Assembly: GCA_000934665.2 (NCBI GenBank)
Contig: JYFJ02004138.1
Span: 1-34,526 of the forward strand
Length of the DNA stretch: 34,526 nt
Source of the DNA: Catajapyx aquilonaris
Lineage: Eukaryota
Reading direction: 5' to 3'
How positions within the stretch are numbered: the first letter of the stretch is position 1; the number at the start of each line of letters is the position of its first letter. The position numbers were made by a program, and so were the translations under genes. Shown here one piece after another: positions 1-31,268 of the stretch. A model generated the notes under the pieces. That model was not told the DNA's origin, did not search any database, and saw nothing but the letters and a program-made list of their open reading frames with translations.

Positions 1-3000
1 GCACTGTTGGAAAGAAGAGGCTTGCATTACACTTCAGACAAAATAAAATACCCACGATAAGATGTTGCATTTTTCAGGAATGTCAAAGTCTGAAAGAGCT
101 AGTGTTGCTTACAAGCAGCGGTAATTTCACATGATGCTCTAGGAGAAGCCATTCCATTCTTCGATATGGCAGCAATCCTCACAGTGTAGTCTACACATGC
201 GTCAAGCCCACTGATGGATGTTTCAGTTGCTGTGACGTTTTTTGTGGAAATTACCTGTTCATCTTGTAGCACCTCTACTAGATACTGAGCCACACAATTT
301 GGAGCGACCTTTGGAAGATTCCAGGTCAGGTCAGCTGATCCGCTTGTGATATTTGTCGCACTGGGTTCTTGAGGAGCACTGGGCACTATTGGAAAGACGA
401 AGCTGCATTATATTCCAGGCCAAATGCTTTGAATATTAGGGGGTTAGGGGGCACGATAGTGCCCCCGCCTAGTTCTCGCCGCACTGCCGGACCACCTTTA
501 CCCGACACAACTCACGTCATTTTGACCCCCTCGAATCTTCGCACTGGTGAACATACGTGGCTTCAAAAATTTTATTTGGGTAGATGAAAATCGATGAAAA
601 ATTATACCTCCTTACTTCCATGTTCATATCTCTTTTCATTTCCGACTTTAAAAATCCTAAAAACTCCCGAAACGACCAAAATATGACACTCACTGACTCA
701 CTCACTGACTCACTGATCATCAAAATTATACAGAACTTCCAGTGGTCTTAGGATGCTGAAATTTGGTATGCTGGTAGAGATTGTCAAACAAACATCAGAA
801 TAAATATGAAAACGGCACTTTTTGGGGTCTAAATGCTCAAAAAAAAAAAAAAAACGCGAAGTCTGCTGCTGCTTACCAGATGCGGCATTTTTACCACGGA
901 TTAGGCCTACTTTTTACTTTGAAATTCCAGTTATGCTGGTGCTCCTCCTGCCTTCCCCACGTTCGTCTGATCTCCTCACCCCTCCCTTCCCTCCCTCCTC
1001 CCATACCGCTANGGGGGGGGGGGGGAAGTGCTACCAATTTCATCTAATACACACCCATTCAAATCTCCCATATTCACCTAAGCTCGTGTGACCTTGAACC
1101 CGAAAAATTGCGCCTGCGGCGGACCTCCCCCCCCCCCCGAACTGGAGTCCTGGCTACGTCACTGCCGCTAGCTATCTGACTGAAGCTGCGATTGCATTTT
1201 ATACAAATACAAATATTTCATACAAATACAACTACAAATACCTAAATACCTAAAATACAAAATAATACAAATACAATATTCGAGGTCATCAACAGCCTAT
1301 GTGTACAGGGAACAATTCCCAATTTGTGTGGAGTATGCCACTACCATACAGAGGACAGAGCCAAGGCCTGAGTCTTACTAATGCACTCATCGATATGGGT
1401 TCCTCTGTCTTCTCGTGCGGTCAAGCCTACGTGGCTCTTTTCAGAGTTAAAGTATCAATGGAGTGCATCTCATCAATGCCTCCTTTACTAACATCAAGGC
1501 TCAAGAGTCAGCTATTCTGGAGTACGATAGATTGAGATCTATTTACCGACCAGCCTTATCCATACTCAAAAGGGCTAATAAGGCATCGACAGAAGTGGTT
1601 AAGGATCGCGAATGGGCTATGCGATCAGGTGTAGCAGATGTCCAATTCGCACAACCAGAACAGAAAAAAAGGAAGCGTAATATGAGAAAGCAGAAGAAAA
1701 TCATGCCTATTCAGAGGAAAAGATAGTTTTACATACTTTCGTATATAGCCTACACAGTTTACTCTAATAAGAGTCTAAGTTATTAATTACCTTATTTGGA
1801 ATATTTAACGGACCATTGCTTCCACGCCCAACCCCGAGCTATCTTATAATATTATCCTACACTCCTGCCTACAAAAAGAGGTGAGATCCCACCAAAAACC
1901 TTTCTGTAAAAAAAGGCCAAGTTCTCCTGACTGATTGGCCGTAAAAAGTGGTGAGATCTGAAATACGGCCAAGTTCAACGTCGTTGTCAATTACTGGCCT
2001 TCTCAACTTCTTCAACCTAAACCACTAACTTTGTTTTTCCAGGTCGACCTTAAGTTTAATCATCAAAACATTTTACTGGTATTCTTGCTGTAACTTGGCC
2101 ATTGCTCATGTCCGAGGTATTGTTGAATTCTACAACTCTTTCAATGTTTTAAGAGCAATGGCCAAGTTACCGCAAGAGAAATTCCATTAATTTTTTTTTG
2201 ATGATTAAACTTAAGGTCGACCTGGAAGAACAAAGGTAGTGGTTTAGGTTGAAGAAGTTGATAATGCCAGTAATTGACAATGACGTTGAACTTGGCCCTA
2301 TTTCAGATCTCAACACTTTTTTACGGCCAAGCAGTCAGGAGAACTTGGCCTTTTTAACAGAAAGGTTTTTGGTGGGATTTTATTTTTCAAGGATTGCAAA
2401 GTCTGAAAATACTCGTGTTACTTACGAAGAAAGGCAGTGGTGAATTCACATGATGCTCTAGGAGAAGCCATTCCATTCTTCGATATGGCAGCAATCCTCA
2501 CACTGTAGTCTACACATGCGTCAAGCCCGCTGATGGACGCTTCAGTTTCTGTGACGTTCTGAGAGGAAATTACCTGATCATCTTGTAGCACCTCTACTTG
2601 ATAGTAAGCCACACAATTTGGAGCGACATTTGGAAGATTCCAGGTCAGGTCAGCTGATCCGCTTGTGATATTTGTCGCACTTGGTTCTTGAGGAGCACTG
2701 GGTACTATTGGAAAGACGAAGCTGCATTACATTCCAGACCATGTTGTGAATCCAGCATCTGAAGTAAGGCTAAGTTATAGTGTTTGATATACTTACTAGC
2801 AGTCAAAGTAGTTACACTCTCTTTAGTGAAGGTGTCACCTAGAAACGTATCATTTCCCAGGAGCTTGACCTCTGCGCTGAAATTATAACTTGTGCAAGCG
2901 TGTAATTTGTGACAAAACTGGGTTGCACAACTTGCGGTAAAAGGTGACGTGAATTGACACAAGTCTCTAAAATTCGCGATTGTGCACGATGTTCCATCGC

Positions 3001-4791
3001 TCGAGTTCAATCTAACGGAATCTATTAAATCGGTGCACTGGTAAAATCTCCAGTCCAGGGAGATGTTGTAAGGGCTGACAGCTTCTCCTTTGAAATCACC
3101 AATTATCGCAGCAGATGCTGTGGATAGCAATGTGTTATGAATGTGAAATAATTCACTGCTATTTTTATCTGCTTACCGACACTGGTGGTGTAATTGGCGT
3201 ATGTGTAGGGTCCATAATGTCCTCCTAATTTGAAAGCTCTAACTCGAATATTGTAAGCAGCGCATGGGTACACATTTACCGCGAATTCAGTGTTGCTTGA
3301 ATAGGTCCATAATTTCGGCCAATCCGGGCTACTCCTTGGCTTTGTTTGAACTTGATAGCCATGAATGCAAGAGGTGTTTTCAGTTGGTTCAGACCACTTC
3401 AGAAGCAATCTGTCTCCTTGCTGCTCTTCGAATTCAATTGGTCCTGGTGGACCAGGAGCTGTCAAAAAAAACCAACATTAATGCACTGCATTATTATCTC
3501 ATTATTATCATCGGTGCTCAGCAGTCATTAGTTGACGTTACAACAAGACTACAAACAGGTCTTACGTCCTCTGGGCATAAGAGATTCTCCTGTGCTCATG
3601 GCACCCAACCGACCATCTGAAGTCACCGACCAAACTTTGACCTCGATCTCGCTACATTCATCCTGGAAGTCATTCAGAGTGACACTTGTGCTCTTAGTGT
3701 TTATCGTTGTTCGATTACTGTCAAATATTGATCCATAGGAAATCTGGTATTGTTCAATGCAGGATGAGTAGTTGGCCGGTTTCTTCCATGATACGATCAG
3801 GGTGTAATCTTTCATAGGTGTCAGTTGCAAGTCTTCAGGTTCGCTGGATGCTAAATTGGAAAAGAAAATATTGATTACATTATCATGTTTCCTTTAAATT
3901 GTTACAAATTAGTGTTCGAATCCTCACTCGTAGATGCATTCGCCACTTCAAAGTCAGGTTGGAATGCCTCATGACCTTGAAGTTCGACTTCTGCTGTGAA
4001 ATGAACACTTTCGCAGGGATGAAATTCATGGCAATAGACCATTTGGCAGTAGGTCGTCGAGTTATGATTTTCGCAAACTTCGTTTACATTGTGAACTGTG
4101 CAATTGTTTCCATCGCTTGAATTGAATCGAAGAACCGCAATGTTTTTCTGGCACTGTGTGAGTGTCCAGGATAGAGAGATGTGGTAGGGACCAATCGCCT
4201 CAGCTGTGAAGTTCTCAATAATAGCGCCACTTTCTGTTGAAAAACAAGTACGAAACATTGTAGCAACTGCAGGATTAATGCCCGATTGCACCAACGAAAT
4301 TACCGATTCGATAACTCCTAACAGATCGTTAGCACACGTTAAAAGGGCTCCTAACAATCCATTACGAGCTATCGGATCAGAAATTTCGGTTGGTGCAATC
4401 GGTCATACGTTATACTGCAGCTGTAAAACATCTTGGATCTACCTTGACTGATGATTGGAGTCATGTTCACATCTGCGTCGTTCTCATCTTCGCAAGCACT
4501 TCTCGATGCCTTCTGAATAAAACAAGTAATTACATAATTATGTAGCTCCAAATACATTATCCCACCGTTACGGAAAGTTTAAAAATTAACAGACTGCCAT
4601 TTAAATATTTGTTTGAAATTAACGTATGGCAGAGAAAGCTGTCTTTAGTTGATGACGAACTATTCGGATCCCGAATTTAGTCTGAAATAAACAAAGTTAA
4701 TTTGATAGCACAACCTTACCTCAGCAGCATGTCCACTTGAATTAAACGACAAGAGAAGGAAGAGCAGAACAGCTATCGATCCACCTTCCAT
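1..4791 (-). CDS. FN3-D: multi-FN3-like extracellular protein; 3' part lies outside the window
   Basis: Exons: 4791-4720 (signal MEGGSIAVLLFLLLSFNSSGHAAE, Kozak gccATGG), 4512-4443 (KASRSACEDEND...), 4233-3928, 3850-3566, 3458-3177, 3117-2797, 2704-2426, 385-113. A further acceptor (ttccaacag|TGC) starts a next exon at position 3. Domain exons are phase 1-1. Confidence 0.83.
1012..1164. mobile_element. Small nested TIR element (hAT-like end); left end lost at the N
   Basis: Right end CCTGGCTACGTCACTG (reverse complement CAGTGACGTAGCCAGG) is followed by CCGCTA. The same CCGCTA sits just before the N at 1012, consistent with a target-site duplication. Confidence 0.45.
1280..1726 (+). pseudogene. 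Frameshifted PIF1-family (SF1B) helicase C-terminal fragment of a Helitron Rep/Hel protein
   Basis: Across frameshifts it reads AYVYREQFPICVEYATTIQ / SQGLSLTNALIDMGSSVFSCGQAYVALFRVK / GVHLIN, matching PIF1 motifs QFPL..AYA.TIHKSQG.SL and GQ.YVALSRV. Confidence 0.85.
1888..2376. repeat. ~490-bp imperfect palindrome (arms ~220 bp)
   Basis: CCCACCAAAAACCTTTCTGT...AACTTGGCCATTGCTC (1888-2108) is the reverse complement of 2153-2376, with a ~45-nt loop; AT dinucleotide on both flanks. Confidence 0.9.
4279..4405. mobile_element. Old palindromic Tourist/Harbinger-like MITE in FN3-D intron 2
   Basis: Inverted termini TGCCCGATTGCACCAAC and GTTGGTGCAATCGGTCA, with degenerate palindromy throughout. The termini resemble those of the 20788 MITE. 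Confidence 0.7.
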
Positions 4792-5269: not shown

Positions 5270-5566
5270 CTTCCAAAAGGCATCTGCTATGCCGATGTCA
5301 TCGCCTGATGCAATAATACGTATAAGGCACTGATAAGCCTATATGCCATATAAGATCCGTTAGAGTCGTAAGCAACGTCAGCAACACATAATCGCAATCC
5401 AATATTAAAAGATACTATTCAGCATATTGCAGATTACAAATTAGCTGGAATGCCGGGGATCAGAGAGGTCGTCAAACTACCTCCAAGGTTAATATTCCGC
5501 GATATTTATCAACACGTCCTTTCCTTTCGCAAGTAACTTGATATTGTAGCAAACTCATACTTGATT

Positions 5567-5909
5567 TTTTTTTACATTACCCCGTGCTAGGGCCATGGGC
5601 CCTTATAGGGGGGTGGATTACCACCATTTTCCTTCAATTTTCTTATTATTTTCTTCTAACACCGGTGCAAGGATGAAAGGACGAGATGTGAGGATAGGGA
5701 TTTTCGGGGAGGGAACATGGGTGCAAGTGCACGTCTGAAAACGGGTCATGTGCTGTTCCCCAGGAGGTTAGGTTGCCAGACACCTCCAAGGTGCAGGTCA
5801 GAGACCCTCCTGACGCAGGTGAAAGGAAAGTTCCCCATGCGGGGATCGAACCTGGGGCCTTTCACACAGCAAGCCGAGACGTTACCATCACGGCCACCAC
5901 ACCTCCCCC
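5567..5909 (-). mobile_element. Full-length tRNA-derived SINE with 18-bp TSD
   Basis: Minus-strand head has an A box (TGGCCGTGATGG) and a B box (GGTTCGATCCC); A-rich tail at ~5567-5573. Perfect direct repeat GCAAACTCATACTTGATT at 5549-5566 and 5910-5927. A second copy is at 33579-33865. Confidence 0.9.
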
Positions 5910-10297: not shown

Positions 10298-13200
10298 CTA
10301 CAGACAAGGCAATGTGGTGAAATTGGTGTATCTGAATTGCCCCATTCTTCCTCCGGGTGTGACTGCTCCGACCCTGAAGGAATACGCGACACAGGGATCA
10401 GCAGAAACAGTCCGATAGTTTACAGACACACGTCTATAGACATGCGGCCATTCTTCGTTCGTCTTCTTCATCTGGAAGTAATAGGCAGCGTTGCAAGTCG
10501 AGTCCTTCGGGATGCCCCATTTGACCAGGAGAGAGTTGCTCGGGAGACCCTCGAACTCCATCTCACCAGGTTCACCAGGCACTGTTGGAAATACAGGCAC
10601 GTGGTAATCCCTTCAGATGCATAGATTCACATTGTGCTATACCTTCTTCCATGAAGGGAACTGGCCATATTTTGGCAATGTCTCCTATTTTCCCATCAGA
10701 ACCTTGCAACTGTAGAGTGACCGTGTAGTTCTGACAAGGGGACAGCCTTTGAGGAACAACGAAAGTGCAGACACCGCCTTGTGCGCACACGTCGCTTGTG
10801 TTCATGTCCTTCCAAAACACAGTTCGGTTCGATCCAACTACTGTCACAAAAACGCTTTTTGCAATCTCCAAATTGCACAACCTGATCTGGAAGCTGACGA
10901 CCATCAAAGAATTGGTCGCGTTTGCTGCAGACATGTTCGTCATTGCATCTGAAATTGAACGCAAACTCTTTTGAAATCTGATTGTCACAAGTAAAATGCA
11001 ATATTACTTACTCCAAGGAGAGGTGCAATAATTGGCGAATTTGCATGGTCCCTTTTCACCTCGAAGTGTTTCGGGACATATTCGCACGTTGTAATCCACG
11101 TCAGGTTGCACTTCTGTGATGTCAAAGGTGTCGTTTGTTTCGTGATTTGCATCGGTCCAGTTGTGATCTGCTTGCTTAATCTGCACTTTGTACTGGTCAA
11201 CACAAGCAGGGTTCACTTCCGGGGGAGACCAGGCTGACCACAAAAGGTTTCCGGGCAATTCCTCAAACCCGACGGACCCTGGTTCTCCAGAGACTGTCCA
11301 TAAAATAAGAGTGTTAATGACATAAAATGTGTATACATTTACAGGGAATGATTACCTTCTTCATCCATGGTCACAGGTCCTATTTTGGCTGATTTCCCGT
11401 ACTTTCCTTTCGTATTGTACGTCTTGATCGTAAATGTGTACGTCTTACATGGTGACAGGCTCTCCGGAAATGTGAAGTTGCAATTAACATCGTGGCAAAC
11501 TTTCTCTTTATCCATATCAGCCCACACAAGCATTTCGTTGTCTGTTGATGCCACCACGAATATATTCTTAATCTTATCGACCGTGCATGACCTCAGGTCA
11601 AACCTGAGGGACGCATGAGTTGAATTTAGTGCCTCTGCCTCTAAATGTATCACCGGATCTGAAACAATGCTCAATGAACATATAGGAATCAGAGTGGACA
11701 ATAGTACATACCTGCAGTGGAAGTGCAGTAAGTGCCATGTACGTAATTCCCTCGTTGACCTTTAGGCGTGACAGCCCATACTCGCACCATGTAATCGACA
11801 TCTGATTGCATATTAGTGAGGTAATACTTGTTGTTGGTAGCCACTGACGAATTTGTCCAATCGGAATCGAATTCCTTAATTTGCAAATAGTACTCTAGTA
11901 CGCATGTTGGGTTACGAACTGGTTGGGACCATCTGATCAGAAGCTCGTGCTCTGGAAGTTCCTCAAATGTCAGCTGAACCGGTTCGCTTGGAACTGTCAT
12001 AAAGATGGCAGGGCATGAAAGTGATTACACAAGTACATTACATATAGGCTACAAGTAAAGGCAGCTCACCTTCTTCCATCAACGTGACAGGACCGCTAAT
12101 GACAGGATCGGTTATGTTTTCAACGTTGCTGTACATCGTCACTGAAATATTATACACATTGCAAGGAGAAAGATCCTGAGAGTAATTGAAATTGCAGTGT
12201 CGACTTTTGCAGGCTGATGTCATGTTCAGATAGCTCCAAGAAATCAAGTTGTTCTCTTTGAAGGCTTCCACAAACACGTTGGTAGCAAAATGACTGATGT
12301 CATCCTCTATGTCGAACCGTATCTCCACTTGGGTGGAACTGACGACATAGGCGGTGACATTCGCGACCTCTTGACCTTCTTTACGCGTCCTAGTGAAGAT
12401 AACTACCTTTTCAGACAGCCCTACTGAGTTGTTGGCAACCACTTCGCACTCGTAGTTGGTTAAAGGCCTGAGGTTTGTTATCCAGCAATGCGACAACAGC
12501 TCGTCTGCATGATGCTCACTCCTGCACACCCTTTCCGAGTGACCTGACCTGGATGAGCAGTTGACCTGAAGGTCAGGCTCCCCACACTTACCGACATCAG
12601 GCTGATACCACACGATTTGCACCGAGTGTGACTTTACAAGGCCGATCCCAGCATTAGGCTTGGGCGGTCCTGCAATTAATTATTAATTGTTCATCATGTT
12701 GTACAGTACAGTACGAGTAAATAGTTCACTTACGAAATGGTCCTATAGAAAAATGAAAGGGTTGACTGGCCAGCTCCTGCTGGTGCTCGGTTGCGAATTC
12801 ATAGACTACGGCCTCGTATTGCTCGCAAACTTTGATGTCATTGTCAATAATTGTCATACTGGTGCTGTCAGGAGATGTGGTATTAAAAAACACTTCATTT
12901 CTATTATGAAACACTGCAACTCGATATTTCGCCACGCATTCTGGCGCATTAGCTGGATGGTTCCATATTAATTTTGTAGAGTTGTATGTGGTGTCGGTAG
13001 TGGACACTATTACAGGAGCGCTGGGTGCTAAAATGCAGTACAAACAAAGTATATAGTACATAACGTTTTGTTTCAATTGAATATTTACTGACATCTAAAT
13101 CCTGAGATCCACGATATGACTGCAGCCTCTCCAGCAGTGTCACCTTCAAGTGTGATTCCTGTCACGCTTATGGTGTAGTTGGTGCAGGGTCGTACATTGT

Positions 13201-16200
13201 GAATCTGATGTGATCTGGCAGTGCTGTCAACCCTCAACTGGACAACTTCTCGTTCCCAATCGTGTCCCCAACTATATTCAATTCCATACTGACCTATGCA
13301 GCTTGAAGCTTCTTGGCGATTCTTCCAGGCGATTTTAATTGTTCGGGAATATTGCGTGATTTGCAGATCTTCCGGTCTGCTTGGTACTTGTAGGGAAAGA
13401 AAATGCAGGGTTAGTAATTCCTGCATACAGGATGAGTCTTAACTTCGTCACAATAATTAGTTAACCCTACTTGAATCCTTCGTGTTACTGGTGATGGTGA
13501 CTGCAGATGCATTTGGATAGTCACGGTACAGAGATGTTACGCTGAAGTTGTACACTGTGCAAGCTTCCAGGCCGGTTAGTACACACTTGCACGAATCTTT
13601 GTCGCATGTTACTCTTTCGGTTTTGCTCGAGGCATTGACTGTGTACATGTCGGTAAAGCAAACTGGAGCTGTCCAGTAAAAAGTGGAGTTGGAGGACCAG
13701 GTGTCGACCTGAAAATTTCTCACCATGTGATCGGTGTCTGAAAAGAATGTTTGATTTAATGAATGTACCCATTTGAAGTAATTCAAAACTAACCATTTCC
13801 AATAACTTTTTCATTGAAGATTGTTGCGTAAGAGTTGCTCATCTGACCGTCCAGTGTCACTGCCCAAATTTGGACGTCGTACTCATTGCAACCTTGCAGG
13901 TCAGTCAGAATCAGCTTCTTGTTAGCAGTGGTTTCATTTGTGCCGTGTTCACTTCCGGATGGTTGGTACCAGACGATGTAATGGTCCGCACATTGAGGAT
14001 GCTTTTTTGGCCTGCTCCAGCCAAGTTCAAGAGTGTGCGGCTCATCAGAACTGGCTCTCAAACGAATAGGTCTGCTTGGAACTGATAATTTGCAAAATTG
14101 AAAAGAGAAATTTCCGTCTACTAATTAGTGCCTATAACTCACGGTATGTCTGGGTAATCACGCCGTTGCTTGAGTCGGACTTGTGCTGAAACTCGTCTTT
14201 TCCTTTAAGCCTCACTGACACGGCGAAGGAGTAGTTGGTGCAAGGTTCGAGGTGATTGCAAAACGCTGAAGTGCAATTAGCAGAGAAAAGGCTACCGTCC
14301 ACCGAACATATGTCACGGATGTTTGTAATTACACAATGGCTGCTTTCATTAGCATCAATTCTGACGGCTTCTATTAACTCTCCGCATTGACTGAACCCCC
14401 AGTCTAACGTGACGTTGAAAGGTCCATTTGCAGTAGCTCTTATTCCTTGAATAATCTCTTCAGATTCTGCAAAAAAAAAATGCGAGATATGACACCATAA
14501 TGCATGGCTTTTCCGCAATGGGGAACTAGCCTTCATTTTGGAAACTACATAATAAATTCGCCCATATTTTTTGGATTTTTTTGGCATATTCCGTTTTAAG
14601 ATATCAGTTCCCGTTCCGGAGTAATTGGGGTTTTTATGTAGGGAAGTGGTGACGTCACTGTTTCCCTAGAAAATGTTGACGTCACGCGAAGTGAAAGGAA
14701 CGCAAAAATGGTGTTATAGAACGCGCCCCGTCATTGTTGTAAAATGCTTCGCTGTTGTTAGCAACCGTCCCATTCCGTGAGCAAGATAGCGGCCGGGGCG
14801 CGTTTTTACTTCACGCCGCTCAATCAGCTAAGGGGCTGGCAGTGGTGCCAACTGGCAGGAATCATCTGTCACCCGAATTCGGCACATGAAGGCCCCCTTT
14901 TCTCCACCTCGATGGCCTACAGCCGCCTTGCGAATGCTTCCCGTCGTGTCCGCGGTTAATTCAAAGTCAAATTCCTCATATCTCGCAGTCAACCAGGCAT
15001 TTCAGTGTACCCTTTCGATTGGCAGCGGCGTTTTTCCCGCCAATTTTGAAGGCACTTTTAAATGTGCCGTAATTTATCCAGTAATGTCATTTTGATGCAA
15101 CAGAGTGATGGAATGTATGTTTACAGGCATGGGCTAGCTAGTTATGAACAAAAATCCCAAATCCCAGACCAAGGCTAGTTCCCCATTGTTCACACTCACT
15201 CATTGTAGTTGTGAAGGTGGACTTAATGTAAGGCCCAGATTTTTCCATCGGTGTTACTGGCCCGACATATACTTCGTATTCAACACAAGGAACCACACTT
15301 GCTGCAAAAGTGGTTTTGTTGGTTACTATTTTATTGGTCCAATTTTGGCCGGTACTTGTCTTCATCTGCACGTAATATCCAGCAACACACTCGATGTTTC
15401 TCAGCGGAGGAAGCCACGATATTTCTACTTGGTTGTTTGATAGCTCTTGGATTGTGATATTTGGCGGTGAACTAGGGACTGAGAGATTTGACTTGTTAAA
15501 ATATAGTGTGAATATTTCTGAAGAACGTGTTTGGGAATGGCCGTACTCACATTCTTCCGCTACAGTGACAGCGACAGTGTCTTCTCCTGGCAGTAGACCT
15601 TCTTCCGAAAATAACTTGACAGTAACGTTGTACAGCTTGCATGGAGTGATATCTTTACTGATTGAGTAATTGCATCTACCGATAATTTTGTTACAAACAG
15701 TAGGCAAATCATCATCATGAATTGTTTCGTTGTAACTTGTCAAAATTGTTCTGATACCGCTGGCCATCTTCATAGCGCACTTTCCAATATCGAATTGAAC
15801 CTCAATCGATTTTGAGGATATGGACCAGGCAGACAAGTTTACGACGGTGTCTGAAAAGTCAATCGTTGTTATCATAGCAGCATACTTGTACAGAGCAATA
15901 ACTTACATTCATCTGATTTCCCAGGTAAATATATGCTGGATTCATTTTCATAATTGTCCTGACCAGTGTAGAGAGCGGCTACGGAAATTTCGAAGTCAAG
16001 GCACACATCCAGAGGTTGGCAAAACTTTGAATGGCATGCACCATGTTCGTCGCAGGCTCCGGTATGGTTGGCAAAGCAAGTCAGGGCATTGTCACCAGGT
16101 GTTTTGGAGACGGCTGTCAGCCTGTATCGTGACAGATAGGCCGGCTTACACGAAGGGGACATCCAACGAACATGGGCCAGTTCATTATCAACATGCGAGT

Positions 16201-16603
16201 GTCTCGTTACGGTCAGATTCCTCACGATTTGACCACCATCTACAAGAGGCGAGAAGAAAAATACACGTGAACACTATACCAAACTAGGTGATTGCAAACA
16301 CTATAATTGCCCTAACCAGTACCTGGACATGGCTTAATGTTGGTTGATGAAATCATTCTTCTTGACGATGTGTGAGATGGGCCAATAATCGGCCAGTAAT
16401 ATGTCCTGCCCTTAAATAGTTAGGAAAATTTACAATAATTACTGGTAGAATTCACCTGACATCAAGCATGACGTTATTGGCAAAAGGTCATGACTGTATG
16501 ACCTTATATTAATAATAATAATACTTACCTTATTTTTAACCTGTCCATATGAGTTAGCCCACCACAAAACACTTAGCAATAACAGTGTTCTTGTCACTGC
16601 CAT
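10298..16603 (-). CDS. FN3-B: secreted multi-FN3-like protein, 16 coding exons, 15 domains, ~1530 aa; paralog of FN3-A
   Basis: Exons: 16603-16529 (or 16541; signal MAVTRTLLLLSVLWWANSYG), 16410-16323 (GRTYYWP...SSRRMISSTNIKPCP), 16239-15907, 15850-15551, 15478-15200, 14466-14143, 14081-13794, 13737-13471, 13386-13093, 13027-12734, 12669-12070 (two domains), 11993-11712, 11658-11356, 11293-11012, 10948-10643, 10581-10298 (TAG). Internal domain exon lengths are all multiples of 3. Exon order is collinear with FN3-A exons 4-17. No transmembrane segment. Confidence 0.88.
14516..15188. mobile_element. Non-autonomous DNA transposon (~670 bp, 18-bp TIRs) in FN3-B intron 5
   Basis: Perfect inverted repeat CAATGGGGAACTAGCCTT (14516-14533) and AAGGCTAGTTCCCCATTG (15171-15188). 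It accounts for the only long intron of FN3-B. No clean TSD, so the superfamily is not assigned. Confidence 0.75.
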
Positions 16604-17105
16604 TTCTGACCACCTTTCCCTACTCGTGTCTTGTGGATGGACTGAGCTGGTGTATAGGATTTGACAAACATGGACAATACGACGCAATGATTGTCTTTTT
16701 ATTGTGACGTTTTAGTGGATAACCGGATAAGATCGGGGCATCCTCAGAACAGAACAGGACAAAACAATAATATCTAATCGGCCATAACAGTACCGTACAA
16801 CAATGAAACCTAAAAGAATGTGCAAGTCCAACAAGTGTGAAATCGGCTTGATTTATAATAGCGTTGATTCCACATCAATAAAGTAGAATTCAATCAATTT
16901 GCGTTCGTATCGCAAAAATTGGGGAAATGGCGCCTGCACTAATTTTTCTATATACACGTACGAAATATTCCCGCATATTTTTATCTCATTGCGATAAATT
17001 AAGATTATGCGGATACAATGTACGACAAGTTGTGCAGGAATGCGGCTAATGAAGGACAGGCGCAATATTTTCTCTGACTGCAATTTATTTTATTTTATTG
17101 AAATA

Positions 17106-20100
17106 TCAATTGCATGAAGGCGTTGTGGTGAAATTGGCGTATCTGAAGTGCCCCATTCTTCCTCCGGATGTGACTGCATCGACCCTGAAGGAATACTCGA
17201 CGCAGGGACGCACTGAAACCGTCAAATAATTAACATCAACACGGCTGTACAGAGACGGCCATTCTTCGTCACTCTTCTTCATCTGGAAGTTATAGGAGCC
17301 GACGCAATAAGCAGAATCCTTCGGGATGCCCCATTTCACCACCAGAGAGTTGCCTGGGAGATCCTCAAACTCCATCTCCCCAGGTTCACCAGGCACTGTT
17401 GGAAAGATAAGTACGTGTAATAACAATGGAGAGTATAAATAAATTCATTCAGCACCTTCTTCGCTGTAAGGAAAGGGGCCTATTTTGGCAATGTCTCCGA
17501 TTTTTCCATCAGAACCGTACAACTGCAGTGTGACCGTGTAGTCCACACACGGGTACATCTTTTGAGGTATGGCCAAGTTGCAATTGATACCTTGACACAC
17601 GGTGATTATGCTAAACTCTCCCAAAAACACCAATCTGATTCCCATAGCCGCCGTTACCAGGACGGTTTTCGCAATATCCAAATTGCACAGCCTCAATTGA
17701 AAGCCTATCATCGGATTGGTCGTGTTCGTTGCGTTAACAGTCAAATTGACCACAGAATCTGGAATTAACATTTCACGTTTTAAGTTAAACTCTGGTACAC
17801 TATGCTATATTTTAAGGTGTAAATATTTTCAATTAATTTATACCCGAAGGCGTGCTGCAGTAGTTTGCGAATTTGCATGGACCTCGTTCATCCAAAAATG
17901 TTTCGGGACATATTCGCACGTTGTAATCCAAGTCCGGTTGCACCTTCGTGATGTCAAAGGTGTCGTTTGTTTCGTGATCTTCATTGGTCCAGATCTGATC
18001 TTCTTGCTTAATCTGCACTTTGTAGTGGTCAACACAAGCAGGGTTTACTTCCGGGCTAGACCAGGCCATCCAGAGAAGGTTTCCGGGCAATTCCTCAAAC
18101 TCGACTGATCCTGGTTCGCCAGAAACTGCGAAAAAATTTATTTAACAATGCATTCAGAAAACCGAAAAAAATGGCAAATACCTTCTTCCATCATGGTAAC
18201 AGGCATTGTTGTTATCGTTTTGCCGTACTTTCCTTCTGAAGTGTAGGTCTGTATCGCAAAGGTGTAAGATTTACATGGGAACAAGCTCTCCGGAAAGGTG
18301 AAGTAGCAATTATTTTTTAAGCAAACTTTCGATTTGGACAGGTCTGCCCACTCAACTTTCTCGCTGTCTGTTGATGCCACTACGAATATTTTCTCGACCT
18401 TATCGGCCGTGCATGACCTCAGGTCAAACCTGAGGGACGCATGAGTTGAATTTAGTGCCTCTGCCTCTAAATGTATCACCGGATCTGAAACAGTGCTCAA
18501 TGAACATATAGGAATCAGAGTGGACAACAGTACATACCTGCAGGGGAAGTGCAGTAAGTGCCATGAACGTAATTCCCTCGTTGACCTGTAGGCGTGACAG
18601 CCCATACTCGCACCATGTAATCGACGTCTGATTGCACATCAGTGATGTAATATGTGTTGTTGGTAGCCACTGACGAATTGGTCCAATCGGAATCGAATTC
18701 CTTAATTTGCAAATAGTACTCTAGTACGCATGTTGGGTTGAGAACTGGTTGAGACCATCTGATCAGAAGCTCGTGCTCTGGAAGTTCCTCAAATGTCAGC
18801 TGCACCGGTTCGCTTGGAGCTGTAACAATCATATCAAAATGTGACTGGTGAGAACTGACAGCAATTGTGAAGGCAACTCACCTTCTTCCATCAATGTGAC
18901 AGGACCGATGCCCACAGTGTTGCTGATATTCCCTACATTACTGTACAGAGTGACCGTAAAATTATAGACATTGCAAGGAGAAAGATCCTGAGAGTAAGTG
19001 AAATTGCAGTGTCGACTTTTGCAGGCTGATGTCACGTTCAGATAGCTCCAAGATATCATGTTGTTCTCTTTGAAGGCTTCCACAAATACGTTGGTAGCAA
19101 ATTGACTGATGTCATCCTCCATGTCGAACTGGATTTGCACCATTGTGGAACTGGCAGCATAAGCCGTGATATTTGCAATCTCGTGACCTCCTCCATGCGT
19201 TCTGGTGTCAAGAATGACCTCATCTGATTGCCCACCCGAATTGTTGGCAACAACTCTGCACTCGTAGTTGGTAGACGGCTGTAGGTTTTCTATCCAGCAC
19301 TGTGACAACTCTCCAACCGAACTGTTGCTCCTGCACACCCTTTCCGAGTGACCAGCTGACCTGGACGAGCAGTTGACCCGGAGGTCAGGCTCCCCACACA
19401 GGCTGTCCTTACTGATATCAGGCTGGTGCCACACAATTTCCACTGAATATGTTGTAACGAGGCCAATGGCAGCGTCAGGCTTGGGTGGTCCTGAAGTAAT
19501 TGTTTATCATTATACATGTATAAACAAATTGAATGCTGTACACATAATGACTTACGAAGGGACATAGTAGTGAAATCAAGCTGCTTGCTTTCACTTTTGT
19601 AGCTCGTGCTGAATGCAGTGACTGCAGCCTGGTATTGTCCGCAGGCTTTGAGACCACTGTCAACATTCTGAGAAGTAACATCGCTCAGTACATTTGCAGT
19701 AAACACTTGCATTTCTTTATAATACACTGTAACATTGTAACGCCGCACGCATTCGTATGCAATGTCAGGAGGCTTCCACTGTATGTCAGCAGAGTTATAG
19801 GAGGTGCCAGCGGCGCTTATTATTGCAGGAGGACTGGGAGCTGAAATGTAACAAATTAGTCATATCATAAGTTATGACAAGCCCTGCTTCAAAATTTGGG
19901 CAGTACCCTCTTCCTGTGTGCTTGTGGTATTGGAGGCTGCTGTGCCTGGCCTCCCGCCGATAGTGATACCCACCACTTCTACGCTGTAATTGGTGCATGG
20001 ATGCAGACCATGCAGCAAAACGGTTAGGGTTGAATTAGAAACAGTCTGGTTATCGCCGTCTCCATATGCACTCCAGTGTGAAACATTATAATGATCGATG

Positions 20101-23100
20101 CACTTCGAAGCCTTTTCGGGTGCCGTCCATGAAACTGTGATGGAACTATTAACACTGCTGACAAGTTTTAGGTCTCGCGGATCACTCGGTACTAAAATTG
20201 AAAGATTGTACGTAATTAATGCACTGCCACTGAATAATCCAGCAACATGACGTACTTGTTTCTTTCGTTTCATGTGTCATTGCAGCTGCAGGAGCATCGG
20301 GATAATCATCATACAAAGCTGTTACGCTGAAATTGTACATAGTGCAAGCTTCCAATCTCTTCATTTGATACTCGCATGACGCTTCATTGCAAGTGATGTT
20401 GTGTTCTCGTCCGTCCGAGGCCTTCAGCACATAGTCTGAGTTGTTGCAAACTGGTGCGTCCCATTGCAGAGTAGCGTTGTAATATCCAGTGTGGACATGT
20501 AAGTTGCTGACCGTGTGCTCGGTTTCTGAAAATATTTCATTTAATTACAAAATACTCAACAACGTTACACCATTGTCTCACCATTTCCCATAACTGCTTC
20601 ATGATTAATCTTTGCATATTTGGTGCTGTTTTTCCCGTCGATTGTCACTGCCCATACTCTGACGTCGTAAGCCTCACAGCCTTGCAGGTCCTTCAGAACC
20701 ATATTCATTTGAGTAGTTCTTACAGTCTCGTAGAGTTCGATCTTATTGGATGGTCCGTACCAGACGATGTAATGATTTACACACTGAGGGCCAGTTGCAC
20801 CGACCTCAGTATATCTTGGAACCTCGGGTATATCAAGAATTGCCATAGCAATCATTGTTGACCAACAATGATTGCTATGGCAATTCTTGATATACCCGAG
20901 GTTCTAAGATATATTGAGGTCGGTGCAACTGGCCCTGAGGATACATTTGAGGCTTGCTCCAATTCAGGGATAGAGTGTGCGGGTTGTACGAACCGGATCT
21001 CAAATGAAGGGGTTTGCTTGGAGCTGCAGCAATTCAAATTAAGGTAATATAACGCGTTATAAAATTAATGTCGGAACAGTACAGGAAAATTGAGACTCAC
21101 CTAAAGTCTTAGTTGTGATGACATTACTGGGGTCCGACTTGTTCTGGTACTCACTCCTTCCTTGAAGTTTCACCGACACACTGAACGTGTAATTTGTGCA
21201 AGGTTCGAGTGTCAGGCAAACAGGGGAGGAGCATGTTGCTGTGAAAGTGCTGTTGCCCACTGAACAGACATCTTTTGTGATGTTCATTTCACAGTGATTG
21301 TTGTCACTAGCGTCTTTTCGTATGGATTCTAGCAGCTCTCCACATTGACTGAAACTCCAGTCTAAGGACGCATTGAAAGGACCCGTTGCCGTAGCGTTGA
21401 GATCAGTAATTACTTGTCCAGGCTCTGTGGAAACATAATTTTAATTACCATTGATTCAGAGAATGAACACGATTCAGTGATATTTTCAGTGTCGCTTTTT
21501 AAAAAAACACACACACACACCTTTATGTAATGGAGTTTGTAGCACTGAAGCTGCAGTTGATAAATGGAAGGTCTATCGGATTTTACCAGTCGTAGGCAAC
21601 AGTTAACCAGCAATAGATTTTGTCTTCACCAACATGGTCAAATATTTGTTTTGGATTATCTTAAACTGTCCTTTTGCAATTAGTGTGTTTCTCATGTATG
21701 TACGTACACGACGCATAGCTATATGATTCAAAAGGTATCCTGCACTAAAATAATCGTTTTGCTCTAGATTACTATGTAGGCCTACTGGCTATACTATATA
21801 TGTACTAGTATATACTATACTATATATGGCTATACTGGGATGAGCCAAAGTACAGGAGGCTACTTTTTGTGCTGAATGATTCAACTCTCAAAATGAGGCC
21901 ACAAGTTAGTTACATATGGGCATGATAAAATCTGACATAAAGGGTGTGTAACCTACAGTGATTGTTCTTATGCACTTACTCATGATCGTGGTGAAGGTGA
22001 TGTTGCTGTATACTCCAGCCTTTCCCTTTAGTGTGTCCGCCCCAACACGAACGACATATTCGACGCAAGGTAACACTTCTTCCGTAAAATTGGTGTATGT
22101 GGTATGGTTTTTGTAGGTCCATTTTTGGCCGGTGGGCCTACTTGGCTTCATCTGCACGTAATATCCAGTGACACACTCGATGTTTTTCGAGGGAGGAAGC
22201 CACGATATTTCCACCTGATGTTGATTTGTTGGCTCAAGGATTTTGATGTGTTGCGGCGCGCTAGGGGCTGAGAGAGGAATTAGACTTGTTAAAAATCTGC
22301 TGTGAGGTATTTAATGCATGAATATTCCTGAAACATATGCACGGGAAAGGCAGCACTCACGTTCTTCTGCGATTGTGACAGGTCCAACAGTGTCTTCTCC
22401 CAATAGACCTTCATCCGACCATAACTGAACAGTCACGTTGTACTGCTTGCATGGAGTGAGGAGTTTAGTGGTGGAGTAATGACATCTACTGCTATTTGTG
22501 TTGCAAACAGTAGTAATATCTTCATCCTCAGTGAGTGTTTCGTTGTAGCCTGTCAATAGAGTTCTGATACCCCTGGCTGCCTTCAGAGCGCACTTTCCAA
22601 TATCGAATTGAATCTCAATCGTCTTGAGGCTTGTGGACTTGGCAGTCAAATTCACGATGGCCTCTGAAATTTCGCTTTCCATTAATGCAACAATGTTCGA
22701 TAATAACGATATAATATCTTACCATCATCTGCATATGATGCTGTAGCAGGTAAGTCGACTGAGGCCTCATGTCCGTAACTCCGGGAGTCATTGTAAGATA
22801 TGCTGACGCTGAGGGTGTAATCGAGGCACTTGTCCAGCGGGTGACAAAAATTAATACTGCAGGAAGTGTCGTCACATGCATCGGCGTTGCTTGTGTAGCA
22901 AGTTAGCTTGCTCTTTTTTGAAGTCTTTGGAGTTGCAGACAGCATATACTCTGACACGTAAACCTGGTTGCATGAAGACAGAGTCCAGGTAAAGAATACG
23001 CTTCTTTCCTCCTCGTCATCGTAATCGCCATCATCACTTGATATATGCAGGTTGCCGACTGTGTCATTAAGACCTGCGAACAACGCAACATAAATGCAAT

Positions 23101-24222
23101 CTAAAACGCTATTTCATAAGGCTAATTTAGTATGGCGGATTATTTCCTTTCTGTGCGCACCTCCGGAGTGTGCCCATCCCTGGACAGTGTTCGACCAATC
23201 TCCGGTGACATTGTCGAACGTGACCATTGCAACACGGAAGTCAAACAGTGAGCATGCAGGCACTGTCATCAAGGTCACAGAAGTGTCGGTGACTCTCATT
23301 TCGAAGCTGGTCCACTCGTTCTCTAAATGTTCCTTGCATTCCACCCTGTACCAAGTGGGACAGGAGTCGCTTTCCCACGAGAGTTGCACCAAGTTGGGGC
23401 CGGGATGGTCACTTATCCTGACTCCTTTCACCACATCTGAGTCACAGGGAAAAAACCAATGTTTATGATATCGGTATTTGTGTTCGATTGTAGCAATAAT
23501 CGCTACAAAAGTGCCACTCACTTTACGAGCAAATTATTTTTAGTCAATAGAATTGTTAGTACCTGGGCATGTTGATGCTACTGAATTAGTGGCCATCCTC
23601 TTTCTCGAAGCACTTCTCCATGTTGATCTAATGCTTTGCATATAAACTGTGTTATCCTGAATAAAAACAGACATTTATAATATTAATAAATATGTATTTA
23701 TTAGTAAATTAGTAAACCTGTACATATGCTAGGATCAACATTGACTTGTGGGCATAAACTCGAACAATAATGATTTAAAAAAATATGAATCCGTAAGCGA
23801 TAAGATGCTGCTAGTACTTTTTATCGTCTCTTTTCCGCCTGTCAAGGTCGGAAAGATTATGCTGGTGAGGCACAAACCCATTCACAATAATGAAACCTAT
23901 GCAGCTGAAGATTATTTGCCATTCCCCCTGCACCATCGTTCCTCGTCCAGTTAATATTACATAATGCATATAGGGATAGCAATATCGACATTCACATAGC
24001 GTATCAAAAGATTCGTGACAGGAATATGGATCCCTAAACTTTTTGTCCTTGTGATGTCTCTATTATATGGCCCAAAACCGACGCTCATTTGAAACACCCA
24101 AGATTAATACGACGTACGAAACCAAAATCTACCTCATTGTTGATGTTGTTGGTACCAGATCCTCCGGAGTTGCAATCCGCGATGACCAAAAGCAACACCA
24201 GCAGAGGAGCCAATAGTTTCAT
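17106..24222 (-). CDS. FN3-A: secreted multi-FN3-like protein, 17 coding exons, 16 domains, ~1641 aa without the MITE; exon 8 is interrupted by a MITE in this haplotype
   Basis: GT-AG exons in transcript order: 24222-24133 (signal peptide MKLLAPLLVLLLVIADCNSG), 23656-23563 (linker ...SRKRMATNSVASTCP), 23436-23161, 23073-22723, 22663-22361, 22267-21980, 21424-21101, 21023-20582 (contains MITE), 20525-20256, 20191-19907, 19840-19556, 19490-18882 (two domains), 18819-18538, 18484-18182, 18125-17844, 17758-17456, 17395-17106 (TGA). All internal domain exons are phase 1-1. FN3 hallmarks are present (PxxP start, strand-B Trp, LxPCxxY tyrosine corner). AATAAA copies follow the stop at ~17084-17099. 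Confidence 0.85.
20788..20935. mobile_element. 148-bp near-perfect palindromic MITE (PIF/Harbinger Tourist-like), 3-bp TSD, inserted in coding exon 8 of FN3-A
   Basis: GGGCCAGTTGCACCGACC...GGTCGGTGCAACTGGCCC with 73-bp arms, a 2-nt loop and 2 mismatches. Flanked by TGA at 20785-20787 and 20936-20938. Removing it and one TSD restores ...MYPQCVNHYIVWY, matching the paralog ...HPQCADHYIVWY. Confidence 0.93.
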
Positions 24223-25520: not shown

Positions 25521-26076
25521 GGTGAGGTGTACTGTACAGTACGGTACGCGGTACATTTACATTACATTACACACTGAATATTATTATTTATGGAAATTCC
25601 TCCGCGGCGCCGGAGGGCATCTGTGTTGTGACTAGTGCGGCCGTCAGATGTCCCCAGCTGTCAGGATGGGTGGCCGGTGGCCTGGATTCCAACCGGTGGC
25701 GCCTCACTTCATGGCGGACGGGCGGGAGGGGAACTGCGTGGTTGGTGGTCTGCAGGGACGGATGGAGGGAGTGGGCCTGGTTGGTTCTTGGTTGTCCATG
25801 GCGCGTCGGTTGAGGCCACGGCCTTGGGCCACGGTTGTTAGAATTTAGAAATATATCCTCACATCCTGAGGCCTGGTTCGGGAGGGTCGAAGCTCGAACT
25901 CGAAGGGACTGTTGCTCGGTCTGGTCGGGGGAAGGAGGGCGAGTCGGAGGTTGGTCTCTGGTTGGGGGAAGGAGGGCGAAGGGAGGGCGAGTCGGACTGT
26001 GGCCTCATCAGTCACTCTTCCTCTCATTCCAGACAGACTTGGAGAAGAGACCCACCCATTCCCCATCCCATCAGCC

Positions 26077-28130
26077 ATGGAGATGCTGAAACTGGGCAGG
26101 TTCCCCTGTACCCAATGCCCCAACAGGGTGTTCAAGAGGAAGATTGACCTGATGGCGCACAGCTTCACTCACTCCAGGTGGGACAGGGTCAAGGTGGAGG
26201 TCCAGGAGGAGCCGGTGGAGCCGGCCACAATCACCTTCAACAGTGAGGAGGCCAAGAGAAGGTGGGAAGCAGGAAGAGGTACTACGGTGAGGGTCAAGGA
26301 GGAGCCAGGGGAGGAGGAGGCGGAGGGCAACAGTGGCCAGGAAACAATAAGTGACCCTGGTGCAGCAGAAGAGGAGGAGGAGGAGGAGGCAGGGGCTGGA
26401 AGCCATGGAGAAGGAGGAAGGCAAGAGCAGGTGAGAGAGCAGATTGGACATGTTCGCATAATGGCATGTCGAAAACTGGGGTGTCAAAAGTGATCAAAAA
26501 AAACCAACAGTTTTAACCAACATAAAGGATCTCCTCAAGGGTGGACTTGCTTCATGACTGTAAAATAATAATGATCCTGGTAGTGCTTTCACCCATCTTG
26601 AGGTATATTGCATGGACCGTTATTATTATGCAGTGTACACTGTACAAACTGAACCTTTCTGCAAAGCACCCTGGTCCGAGGGCAGGGTGACTGGGAGGGG
26701 ATACTCAAGGGGCAGTGAAATGTCGTCACAATGGTCATTTTCTGAACTCCCCGTGTGGCTAGTTAGGGGAAATCCCACCCGAGAGGAAGCCAGAGACTCT
26801 GTGTAATTTTATCATGCACATTTCTGGCTTGCCTTCGATACATTTGCGAAGTAATTCGGATTATAAATGGCCGAGATAACTGAGGTGTGCAATTAACTTA
26901 ATTATGATTACACAAATGGCGATTTCTAAGTTTCAAATATATCATTAGATAGAAAAAGATTTGCACTATCTAGGGTTCACAGGGGGAATTTTTGGGCCTA
27001 CGAGACGTGTCATAAAAAATTCACTTTTCGGCGTAACTTTGGCAACTAGTCAAAAAAACTGATGGTGGTATACTATACCCCCCTATAGCTCCCTTAAAGG
27101 GACATCACGGGGGAAATTAAATTAAATAAATAAATAAAAAGTAAATAAATAATGTTATTTTTTGGACGCTTTTCCTAGCTGGGCGTTATTTAGAGTCAAA
27201 CACAGGGGCCAGTATTTAAAAATCCGATAGTAGTCCTGTTCCTCTTTCTGTCGCGAATATGACACGAATGACACGTACTCGTATGTATGGGGAGGCCATT
27301 TTGAATTATGACGTCTTATGGGGACAAATTACGTGACAGGCGCGGTTCTGTCACACGGGGCATGGCCTCCATCCGTCTTAGCGGTGGTCGAATGACGCGG
27401 AAAAGACACAAAAACCAAAAGAATCCGTCAGTTGACGCACTTTCAATTAGCACACCCCTAATCTTCATTGACACTCGACCTCCTCAGCGATGGAATATAT
27501 TTTGTGCGCAGGTGTGTTGTGGACGAAAACCTTTCTTTGAGTCCAGCAAGGAACATTTCCCCAAAATGACTTGTTCTCAGTAACATCATTATTTTCCCTG
27601 CGTATCCCTTGCTACTGATGTGTAAGCAGGCAGAAACCTTCGCTGGGTCGTCCGTGTCATTCACTCGATTTGTAAACAGTGGCAACAATGGAGGCACTCT
27701 CCATGTGCTGATGTTTGAATTGGCCTGCCGGACAGGGTTGCCAGGTAACGGGCTACAATATAAGCAGCTTAGGCCGAATTTATCAATAACTAAAACGACA
27801 AAAAAGTTTGATAACCCTGTATTAGATATTCGATTCTGAAAGTGGCTCGGTTTGAAAGTTGCAATTTGCCCCCTTGGACATATCCCCTCACCTCTTGTGA
27901 CCTTGAGGACCGCGGAGTGAAATATTTGGGAAATCTAGAGTTTAGGGATAGGTCTATCTCCCTGCAAATTATTTTGGAAATCTAAAATTCATGAGCATAC
28001 CTCGTGATGATTTCACGTGGAATGGCCCCCATACTATATTCAAACGTTATCATATTACTTGCCATATTATAACGGACTAACCTTACTGTGGATTGGGCAG
28101 AATCAATTAGGCAGCTCCTAGTAAAAGATA

Positions 28131-28195
<65 letters not shown>

Positions 28196-29953
28196 TCCTT
28201 GAGATCTCTCAAAAAATGTACCGGTTAATATAGAGCGATAATACTTGTGTCTTTTGCCCCCTTTTTTTCCAACTGCAATAGTACGTTGACATGTAAATGT
28301 CATTCATTCCCAATTAACTCTACATTCCTTACCCCACACTCCGCACATGTGATTCACACTATCATTCCGTGATTGATAACATACTGAAGTAATTCCTCCA
28401 GCACTGTTGCCATAGGGAAAAATTGCTGACATCCTGAACACTCCCACACACGAAAGCTCACGAGAAGGTTCCCGCAGAGCACGCCGCAGAGTAACCATCG
28501 TGGCACTGTGACGTCAGGGTACTTGCCTTTAGGCTCGTATGGCATGGCCACTAGCCAGCAACTATATAAGCTATTATGGTATTTGGCGACTCAGTAGCAG
28601 CTGATGTTATCCTCTATTTCATGATAGAGTGTTGGCCGTCAATCACATGCGATTTGCAATACTTCCCGTAAGAAGGTACAGTTGTACATTGGTACAGTAC
28701 GAGGAAGCGAGACATGCCCGAGGCAGTAATTGATGTAACATTGTCGACACGGGTGTCGAAAGGGTAGGTATTTTTATGATGTGCATCATGCAATTAAAAT
28801 AGAGATCAAGTTTTCTCTCGGTTTTTTGCAGAAGTCAATAAGTTAGTTGGCAGGGGAGTGAAAAAGAAAGGGATGAAAACCAAAGTAATGGGAAAAAACT
28901 CGGGAAAACAAAGAAACTGGACAGGGTTCGAACCCACGACCCTATGATTTATAGGCCCTAACCCTAACAACAATGCTACAACTCCGTTCATGGCAGGACT
29001 CGTTCCGAACCGGTCTCTTACAATTATCACCATGAGCAAGCGTGTTAATATTTCAATCCATGTACTAACCCAACCTAACCCAGCCTAACCTTCCTTCCTT
29101 GCGGATACAACTCTATCATCAGCGGATACTGGCCTATCTTCAGCGTATACAGCCCTATCTTCAGCGTATACAGCCCTATCTTCAGTGTAGGCCCTATACA
29201 GGCCTGGGAGTGTAGGTAAAAGTACGCGTCGGAGGAATGACTAATGCATGACCAAAAAGGCCTTCTGTCATTTATGCTGGCCAACCCTGTGATAGCTGTT
29301 GCTGAGTTGCAGCGATTTACCAGTAACAGCTCATTAAAAACCGCAGCTACTGCAAGGAACCGGTGGGACTGGGGGAGCGGGCGGGTGGATTCTGTCACGC
29401 TGGTTACTCTGCTGTTACCCGCTCTACGAAAGCTCTGAGCTCTCCATTTGCAAATGACACGTGGAATTATATCGAGGTACTTTGAAGGTGATATTGAGTA
29501 TCAACATGTGCAACTATTGGTATAATTTTAAAAATATGTCATGGCCCCTGTTACACGAAATCTGTGAGGTACATAATAGTCTTGTCTTAATAGTTTCCTT
29601 TGTTAAAATTTTATTTCGGACACTCAGAAAGGCCAGCATTAATTTTCTACCATATTAACAACCAGCCTAGTAATTATTACCAGAAGCTATACTCCGCGCC
29701 CACCTAAACTCCCTATTTACCTAGGCAAGAGTTAATGATGGTTACGCAAACCAAGTGGTACTTTCTACACTGGTTGCTCATTAATTGTTAATTATATTAT
29801 GTCAAGTCAATTTACATGTTCTCATTGCAGGCATTGGAACCCTTCATCCTGCTGTATCAGCTTCTGTACTGTGATGATTGCAACGGTGCATTTGCCACAA
29901 AGAGAGACCTGGAGAGGCACATGCTGAAGAAGCACATCACTCCTCAGCTTCAG
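26077..29953 (+). CDS. C2H2 zinc-finger protein, partial (two coding exons seen; no stop found, likely continues downstream)
   Basis: Exon 26077-26430 (gccATGG; FPCTQCPNRVFKRKIDLMAHSFTH finger, VKEEP motif and acidic run; donor CAG|gtgaga) joins in phase 0 to exon 29831-29953 (ttgcag|ALEPFILLYQLLYCDDCNGAFATKRDLERHMLKKHITPQLQ|gtaata), which holds a second C2H2 finger. The second exon is absent from the ORF track. Confidence 0.75.
28135..28194. repeat. (TAA)n microsatellite
   Basis: About 20 TAA units. Confidence 0.95.
28915..28982 (-). repeat. Degenerate tRNA-like / SINE head fragment
   Basis: Minus strand carries a B box (GGTTCGAACCC) and a degenerate A box; no convincing cloverleaf. Confidence 0.4.
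29112..29200. repeat. 21-bp minisatellite (~4 copies), preceded by AACCT-like repeats
   Basis: Unit CAGCGTATACAGCCCTATCTT and variants. Confidence 0.8.
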
Positions 29954-30982: not shown

Positions 30983-31190
30983 TGAGGGTACAACAATAAT
31001 TTCACCTGAAATAAATGGACCTTCGAATCCGGCTCCATTGTTGCTGAAAGACGTTGCCATATCTCCATGGGATTTTCACCTGGGAGGCTCTTAACTTTAT
31101 TTTTGGCAACACTTCAATGATTTTTATATCAAATTATGAGATGGTCGAGCCATCAAGTTGTCTGTCTTGACATGGAATGACCCAACTACG

Positions 31191-31268
<78 letters not shown>
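31191..31268. repeat. (ATT)n microsatellite
   Basis: About 26 ATT units. Confidence 0.95.

Follow-up and report, generated by a model that had tools for sequence, protein, structure and literature searches.

A young tandem duplication of a single FN3 exon in a long, putatively cell-surface gene of Catajapyx aquilonaris

In tenascins, titin and the R3-type receptor tyrosine phosphatases, each FN3 domain is encoded by one phase 1-1 exon and the modules have been amplified, and the duplication of phase 1-1 domain-exons is the textbook route by which long FN3 and Ig chains grow. The wider phenomenon is common, tandemly duplicated exons being reported for ~10% of animal genes (PMC9013439). Here we describe a case from Catajapyx aquilonaris, in contig JYFJ02004138.1 of assembly GCA_000934665.2, of which positions 1 to 34,526 were analyzed (34,526 nucleotides (nt), hereafter the window). 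Two near-identical FN3 exons, A and B, lie near the left end of the window, where they are the last complete exons on the minus strand (Table 1), and our analyses confirmed that one FN3 exon has truly been duplicated in tandem, along with flanking intron. We hold it about two-thirds probable (0.68) that this head-to-tail duplication was followed by drift under relaxed purifying selection and that the two copies are likely used in tandem.

The pair shares with described tandem exon duplications the adjacency of homologous exons on the same strand, their similar length, shared flanks, symmetric phase and intact splice sites. It differs in that many described cases are old and mutually exclusive, whereas A and B are young (dS ~0.12), each comprise a whole domain and are accompanied by no exclusivity devices that we could find. 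With the FN3-chain proteins the locus has in common that one exon equals one FN3 domain in phase 1-1 and that neighbouring exons can be near-identical, to which is added here a 6.8-kb internal duplication; it is set apart by a family-specific cysteine pair and by the distance of its closest proteins, which are only 22-39% identical.

The similarity of the two exons, including the shared flanking intron that an earlier note on this DNA had described, was borne out by alignment. BLASTN of positions 2800..2300 against 480..1 gave one alignment with 326/361 identities and 8 gap columns (E=9e-136), and a repeat search matched 115-414 with 2434-2733 at 93% (300 nt) and 69-112 with 2382-2425 at 80%. 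The exons are 93% identical in DNA and share 79 of 90 residues (88%). When exon A was searched against the whole window with tblastn, exon B was recovered at 87.8% over 90 residues and all other FN3 exons at no more than 36%, which sets A and B apart as a distinct young pair. Homology continues into the introns and then stops, after ~37-45 nt on the upstream side (94.6% over 37 nt in blastn) and after ~47 nt on the downstream side (80-82%; blastn 82% over 45 columns).

The anatomy of the duplication is recorded in the short intron that follows B. It opens with ~47 nt of homology to the start of the A-B intron and closes with ~38 nt of homology to the acceptor regions that precede the two exons; being made of a donor-side flank joined to an acceptor-side flank, it is the junction intron expected of a head-to-tail duplication. 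The duplicated unit is ~380 nt long and consists of a 3' intron piece, the exon and a 5' intron piece. As the earlier note had observed, this intron ends in an acceptor homologous to both of the others and is followed by TGC, and an exon beginning there is a probable third copy. The third acceptor differs from that of A by 6 substitutions and one indel in ~38 nt (~16%, counted by hand on the MAFFT alignment), compared with 2 differences in 37 nt (~5%) between the acceptors of A and B, so either the copies are of different age or A and B were later homogenised.

The same stretch bears on the suggestion, also raised in the earlier note, that A and B are two haplotypes of one exon joined by mis-assembly at the single N of the window. 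The N does lie between the copies, and the outer homology is short, so that allele-specific insertions could in principle mask allelic flanks. We nevertheless regard this as quite improbable. The N is a single base of a homopolymer rather than a gap run and is located inside inserted DNA, off any duplication boundary. With 7% of coding bases and 12% of residues different and a 6-nt indel between them, A and B show a divergence that would be high for alleles. The neighbouring exon, 92 nt upstream of A, has no copy in the ~590 nt upstream of B, and an artefact would call for two insertions that occurred independently and precisely where the homology ends. Even on the assumption that A and B are allelic, an array is present, because the tandem junction intron and another acceptor both lie in 385..1, a stretch without interruption.

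Between its homologous ends, the A-B intron holds ~1.95 kb of repeat-like DNA. This insert includes a long foldback element (self-inverted blastn match of 86.5% over 504 columns), which starts 47 nt past the donor of A, exactly where the short-intron homology ends, and it also carries homopolymer runs and a microsatellite. Because the neighbouring introns are short (92 and 109 nt) and the excess of the A-B intron starts at the foldback element, we read the insert as later insertions of repeat DNA that would have inflated a former ~110-nt intron to 2040 nt. The insert has no second copy elsewhere in the window by blastn, and Pfam gave no match at E<=0.1 to five open reading frames (ORFs) within it. 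A resemblance to a helicase C-terminus was dropped as unsupported.

Both copies retain the features of an intact domain-exon. Each consists of 2 nt, whole codons and 1 nt, with an open frame and no stop codons. The sequence ...cttcgtctttccaatAG stands before both exons and GTaag behind them (GTaagt in A, GTaagc in B), the AG, polypyrimidine tract and GTAAG being intact in both. Pfam recognized fn3 in exon A (47.4 bits, E 2.2e-12) and in exon B (44.2 bits, E 2.3e-11). An AlphaFold2 model of exon A, built on 19 aligned FN3 exons of the window, reached a mean predicted local distance difference test (pLDDT) score of 97.4 and contained the seven canonical FN3 strands (residues 5-10, 16-22, 31-40, 43-50, 54-58, 65-74 and 83-88), arranged as a sandwich of sheets A, B, E and C, C', F, G. 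Foldseek searches of the PDB with this model returned only FN3 domains, with template-modelling (TM) scores of 0.86-0.87 at the top. Residues W21, C30 and Y34, which are invariant across the FN3 exons of the gene, are kept in A and B, as are C63 and Y66. Exon A is longer by 6 nt (two codons) at its 3' end, an indel that keeps the frame.

The earlier note had gone further and seen in the pair an expanding array in which one face of the domain is under diversifying selection; in a rival account of the locus, the exons of such an array would be chosen one at a time, as in Dscam. The tandem duplication and the signs of a further copy stand, as described above, but diversifying selection is not supported. 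Over 90 aligned codons (270 nt), A and B differ at 19 nt, 8 by transition and 11 by transversion, with one extra difference in the leading 2 nt (TA vs TG). The amino acid is changed in 11 codons and 3 are purely silent; the note had the replacement codons right and its other counts (~17 differences, 2 silent codons) slightly low. This imbalance is the first point in favour of selection, and counting codons in this way overstates it: of the 11 replacement codons, five differ at two positions, and four of those five include a synonymous step. Counted per site, there are 12 non-synonymous changes on 205 sites and 7 synonymous changes on 65 sites, giving dN=0.061, dS=0.116 and a ratio of the two (dN/dS) of 0.52 by NG86, 0.49 by LWL85 and 0.62 by maximum likelihood. 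A Fisher test against equal rates yielded p=0.18, and dN/dS is thus neither above 1 nor provably below it. The earlier reader had compared codon counts rather than per-site rates and so overstated selection, a caution that applies to counts of replacement versus silent codons generally. Synonymous divergence (pS 0.108, with pN 0.059) is of the same order as the divergence of the intron flanks, where the acceptor side differs at 2/37 nt and the donor side by ~20%.

An internal yardstick is available in the same gene. All 14 of the 14 paralogous exon pairs of the 6.8-kb duplication gave dN/dS values between 0.19 and 0.68 (pooled 0.41), and in this respect the A/B pair is typical of the gene's paralogous exons.

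The distribution of the changes is the second point on which selection was argued. Eight of the 11 replacements do fall within residues 25-55, as the earlier note had reported for ~31 residues, and dN/dS is 0.91 in codons 25-55 compared with 0.23 in the remainder. This stretch was picked post hoc, however, and a permutation scan over any 31-residue window gave p=0.083; positive selection between A and B was not detected, as dN/dS did not exceed 1 either overall (0.49-0.62) or in codons 25-55. Mapped onto the model, six replacements lie on strands C, C', F and G, one on E and four in loops or just past strand G. The C-C'-F-G sheet therefore holds 6 of the 7 strand changes, which might favour a selected face, but it also has 34 of the 52 strand residues (18 are in the other sheet), and the bias, judged by strand assignment only, is not significant (p=0.24); the idea of a single domain face found no support in this mapping. 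Replacements are mostly conservative (BLOSUM62 >=0 for 8 of 11, mean +0.09) and hit none of W21, C30, Y34, C63 and Y66. Mean column entropy was 2.21 at changed positions (n=9 of 11, two replacement positions being left out) and 2.11 at unchanged positions (n=78; p=0.21), an uninformative comparison. Taken together, the differences between A and B look like drift under relaxed purifying selection, with no signal of diversifying selection. A few surface sites may still have come under positive selection of an episodic kind, two copies being a weak test and the ratio in codons 25-55 standing at 0.91.

The way in which the copies are used also bears on the choice of exons one at a time. Lengths of 279 and 273 nt are multiples of three, and joint inclusion or the skipping of either copy keeps the frame, so that the frame does not force exclusivity; introns of 2040 and 109 nt are too long for steric exclusion. 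According to the model of Ivanov and Pervouchine, tandem exon duplication can create competing selector sequences (PMC6071210), and the intron elements next to A and B were indeed co-duplicated with the exons. Among the 2 and 2 matches of the two conserved intron elements in the whole window (<=3 mismatches), however, none was on the opposite strand as a docking complement would be, no inverted repeat linked the elements, and the duplex energies of all 11 element pairs lay within two standard deviations of shuffled controls (z -1.7 to +0.9); the search covered the window, and a docking site may lie beyond its left edge. Since docking or selector pairing was not found and the frame is kept, tandem inclusion is the default reading, and A and B most likely encode FN3 domains that follow one another in the protein, whether the exons are constitutive or skippable as cassettes.

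The locus resembles the Dscam arrays in having tandem exons of an immunoglobulin-like fold in a probable arthropod cell-surface gene, together with co-duplicated intron elements. It departs from them in that only two (perhaps three) copies are visible, the window contains no docking complement and there is no excess in dN/dS. We consider an array under diversifying selection with exons chosen singly to be highly improbable. Fainter still is the chance that A and B mark the end of an array that continues beyond the left edge with more near-identical FN3 exons, which would be alternatively included, one by one or in subsets, to vary the C/C' surface of one domain. If true, an arthropod receptor-phosphatase-like protein would have in its FN3 exons an equivalent of the Ig-exon arrays of Dscam; a new question would be opened only if the array were much longer and alternatively spliced.

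The history we favour, of head-to-tail duplication followed by drift, would have run as follows. An FN3 exon with ~45 nt of the preceding and ~50-60 nt of the following intron was probably duplicated head to tail, with unequal crossing-over or replication slippage as the likely cause. At least two rounds of duplication would be involved, because the acceptors of A and B differ by ~5% and that of the next copy by ~16%. Replacements would then have accumulated for the most part where the gene's remaining FN3 exons are also free to vary, and the extracellular FN3 chain would have grown longer through the duplication, in the manner of other FN3-chain proteins. Read in this way, the locus is a clean and young case of a known process in which the junction intron can still be recognized. 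It is also of use for annotation, as predictors often collapse or skip near-identical exons.

Several points weigh against this history. The third copy is read from one acceptor and 3 nt, and the use of A and B from sequence. No relative above 39% identity was present in the protein libraries searched. The differences between A and B are unevenly spread and leave two stretches of 53 and 58 nt without a change (p=0.009 for the second longest); this could be due to constraint or to patchy gene conversion, and is explained only loosely. Nineteen differences give little power, and with p=0.18 one copy could already be evolving neutrally. T89A in B changes an amino acid shared by all of the other FN3 exons in which that column is covered, and two C-terminal residues are missing from B.

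These last points lead to a further explanation, in which one copy, more likely B, is redundant, skipped and decaying neutrally. Along with a dN/dS not significantly below 1, it is favoured by the state of the end of B, where two replacements, F87I and T89A, fall in the conserved end of strand G and two C-terminal codons have been lost, and by the position of B directly behind a 2-kb intron that is filled with repeats and holds a long foldback hairpin. We think it unlikely: both copies keep their splice signals, an open frame, all of the family-invariant core residues and the cysteines, dN/dS outside codons 25-55 is 0.23, and the indel preserves the frame.

Exon A and a two-domain exon were compared with protein libraries. 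A word-index search covering proteins of up to 2000 residues found no match to either. An exhaustive phmmer search gave 1801 matches at E<=0.001, all of them distant and 22-35% identical where they aligned; in the 150 matches listed, a bacterial FN3 protein supplied the best single alignment to exon A (38.75%). In the FN3 exons of the window, C30 (after the B-C loop) is invariant and C63 (before strand F) is present in most. The corresponding motif W...C...Y ... C..Y, a crude pattern, was found in 10 of 163 proteins compared. Nine of these 10 are named, all of them crustacean or insect, and include six annotated receptor-type tyrosine phosphatases (PTPRH-like, Ptp10D, PTPRQ-like and delta) and three hypothetical or uncharacterised proteins. 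Pancrustacean FN3-chain receptor phosphatases (annotated as PTPRH-like, Ptp10D or PTPRQ-like; for example, XP_045609993, XP_046430615 and XP_053685821) are among the carriers of the motif, although identity is only ~25-35% per domain. R3-type phosphatases have an ectodomain of FN3 repeats only; in the minus-strand ORF pieces of the window, fn3 is the one domain type that reached its cut-off, but the gene ends lie outside. The gene may plausibly encode the FN3 ectodomain of a pancrustacean receptor-phosphatase-like protein, which we offer as a lead and not as a classification.

Table 1. Positions of the duplicated exons and of the features around them
Feature	Position	Strand	Length	Description
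Exon A	2704..2426	minus	279 nt	Phase 1-1; 92 whole codons; one complete FN3 domain
Exon B	385..113	minus	273 nt	Phase 1-1; copy of exon A
Exon upstream of A	ends 2797	minus		Cys-rich, FN3-like; phase 1; ORF 2705-3172
Intron before A	2705..2796	minus	92 nt	Last ~37 nt common with the acceptor region of B
A-B intron	386..2425	minus	2040 nt	Homology to the short intron confined to 2425-2379 and 422-386 (the two ends)
Foldback element	1886..2378		~493 nt	Near-palindromic, like a miniature inverted-repeat transposable element (MITE); nested inverted repeats 94-97%
N	1012		single base	By a G/C homopolymer run (G12/C12 inverted repeat flanks); only N in the window
Intron after B	4..112	minus	109 nt	Chimera, by MAFFT, blastn and repeat search
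Probable third exon copy	1..3	minus		TGC after a homologous acceptor; same first three bases as exon B

The DNA of the window is animal-like, with ~37-47% G+C, and Rfam gave 0 matches in the whole of it. A long run of exons extends on the minus strand from ~23.5 kb down to position 1. Pfam matched fn3 at E<=0.01 in 17 of 27 minus-strand ORF pieces in the window, 14 of which reached the curated cut-off (25 bits for PF00041), and no other domain type reached its cut-off in these pieces. The host gene appears to be a very long minus-strand gene of cell-surface type, made up almost wholly of one-exon FN3 modules. It continues past the left edge of the window, its ends lie outside, and neither a transmembrane segment nor a phosphatase domain is present within the window.

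A cysteine-rich module of ~100-115 residues, FN3-like by eye, recurs in the gene at 2705-3172, 3902-4402, 14132-14665 and 21057-21440 (minus strand). The first three copies were scanned and had no Pfam match at E<=0.01. The alternation of these modules with ordinary FN3 exons hints at a possible higher-order repeat.

The 6.8-kb duplication mentioned above consists of a tandem block of ~13-14 FN3 or FN3-like exons, 10300-16270 versus 17100-23110 on the minus strand, at a spacing of 6786-6832 nt. The dS of its exon pairs is uneven, from 0.11 (12024-11689 vs 18877-18515) to >1.5, which suggests partial gene conversion or a mosaic of ages. The least diverged pair (11689-12024 vs 18515-18877; pS 0.106, pN 0.051) has nearly the divergence of A and B, which would fit a common episode of duplication or conversion. 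Within the second block, a near-perfect palindrome at 20784-20939 (77-nt arms with 96% complementarity and a 2-nt spacer) overlaps the FN3 ORF 20565-20903 in its 5' part, and the alignment of this ORF with the paralogue 13789-14124 spans only 70 residues; from the overlap and the short alignment, an insertion appears to have cost this exon copy its N-terminal half.

Other repeats were also seen. Two inverted copies of a dispersed repeat (86-95%) are found at 5566-5865, in an intron of the FN3 gene, and ~28 kb off at 33579-33865. Outside the gene, 31878-32971 is a tandem array of 5-6 copies of ~165-nt units that are 60-85% identical. Long (AAT)n and (ATT)n microsatellites lie inverted and ~3 kb apart at 28128-28196 and 31184-31270. 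On the plus strand, 25870-26493 is a 207-codon open frame with a Glu-rich tail and one sub-threshold match to a C2H2 zinc finger (E=0.069), and may be part of a neighbouring gene.

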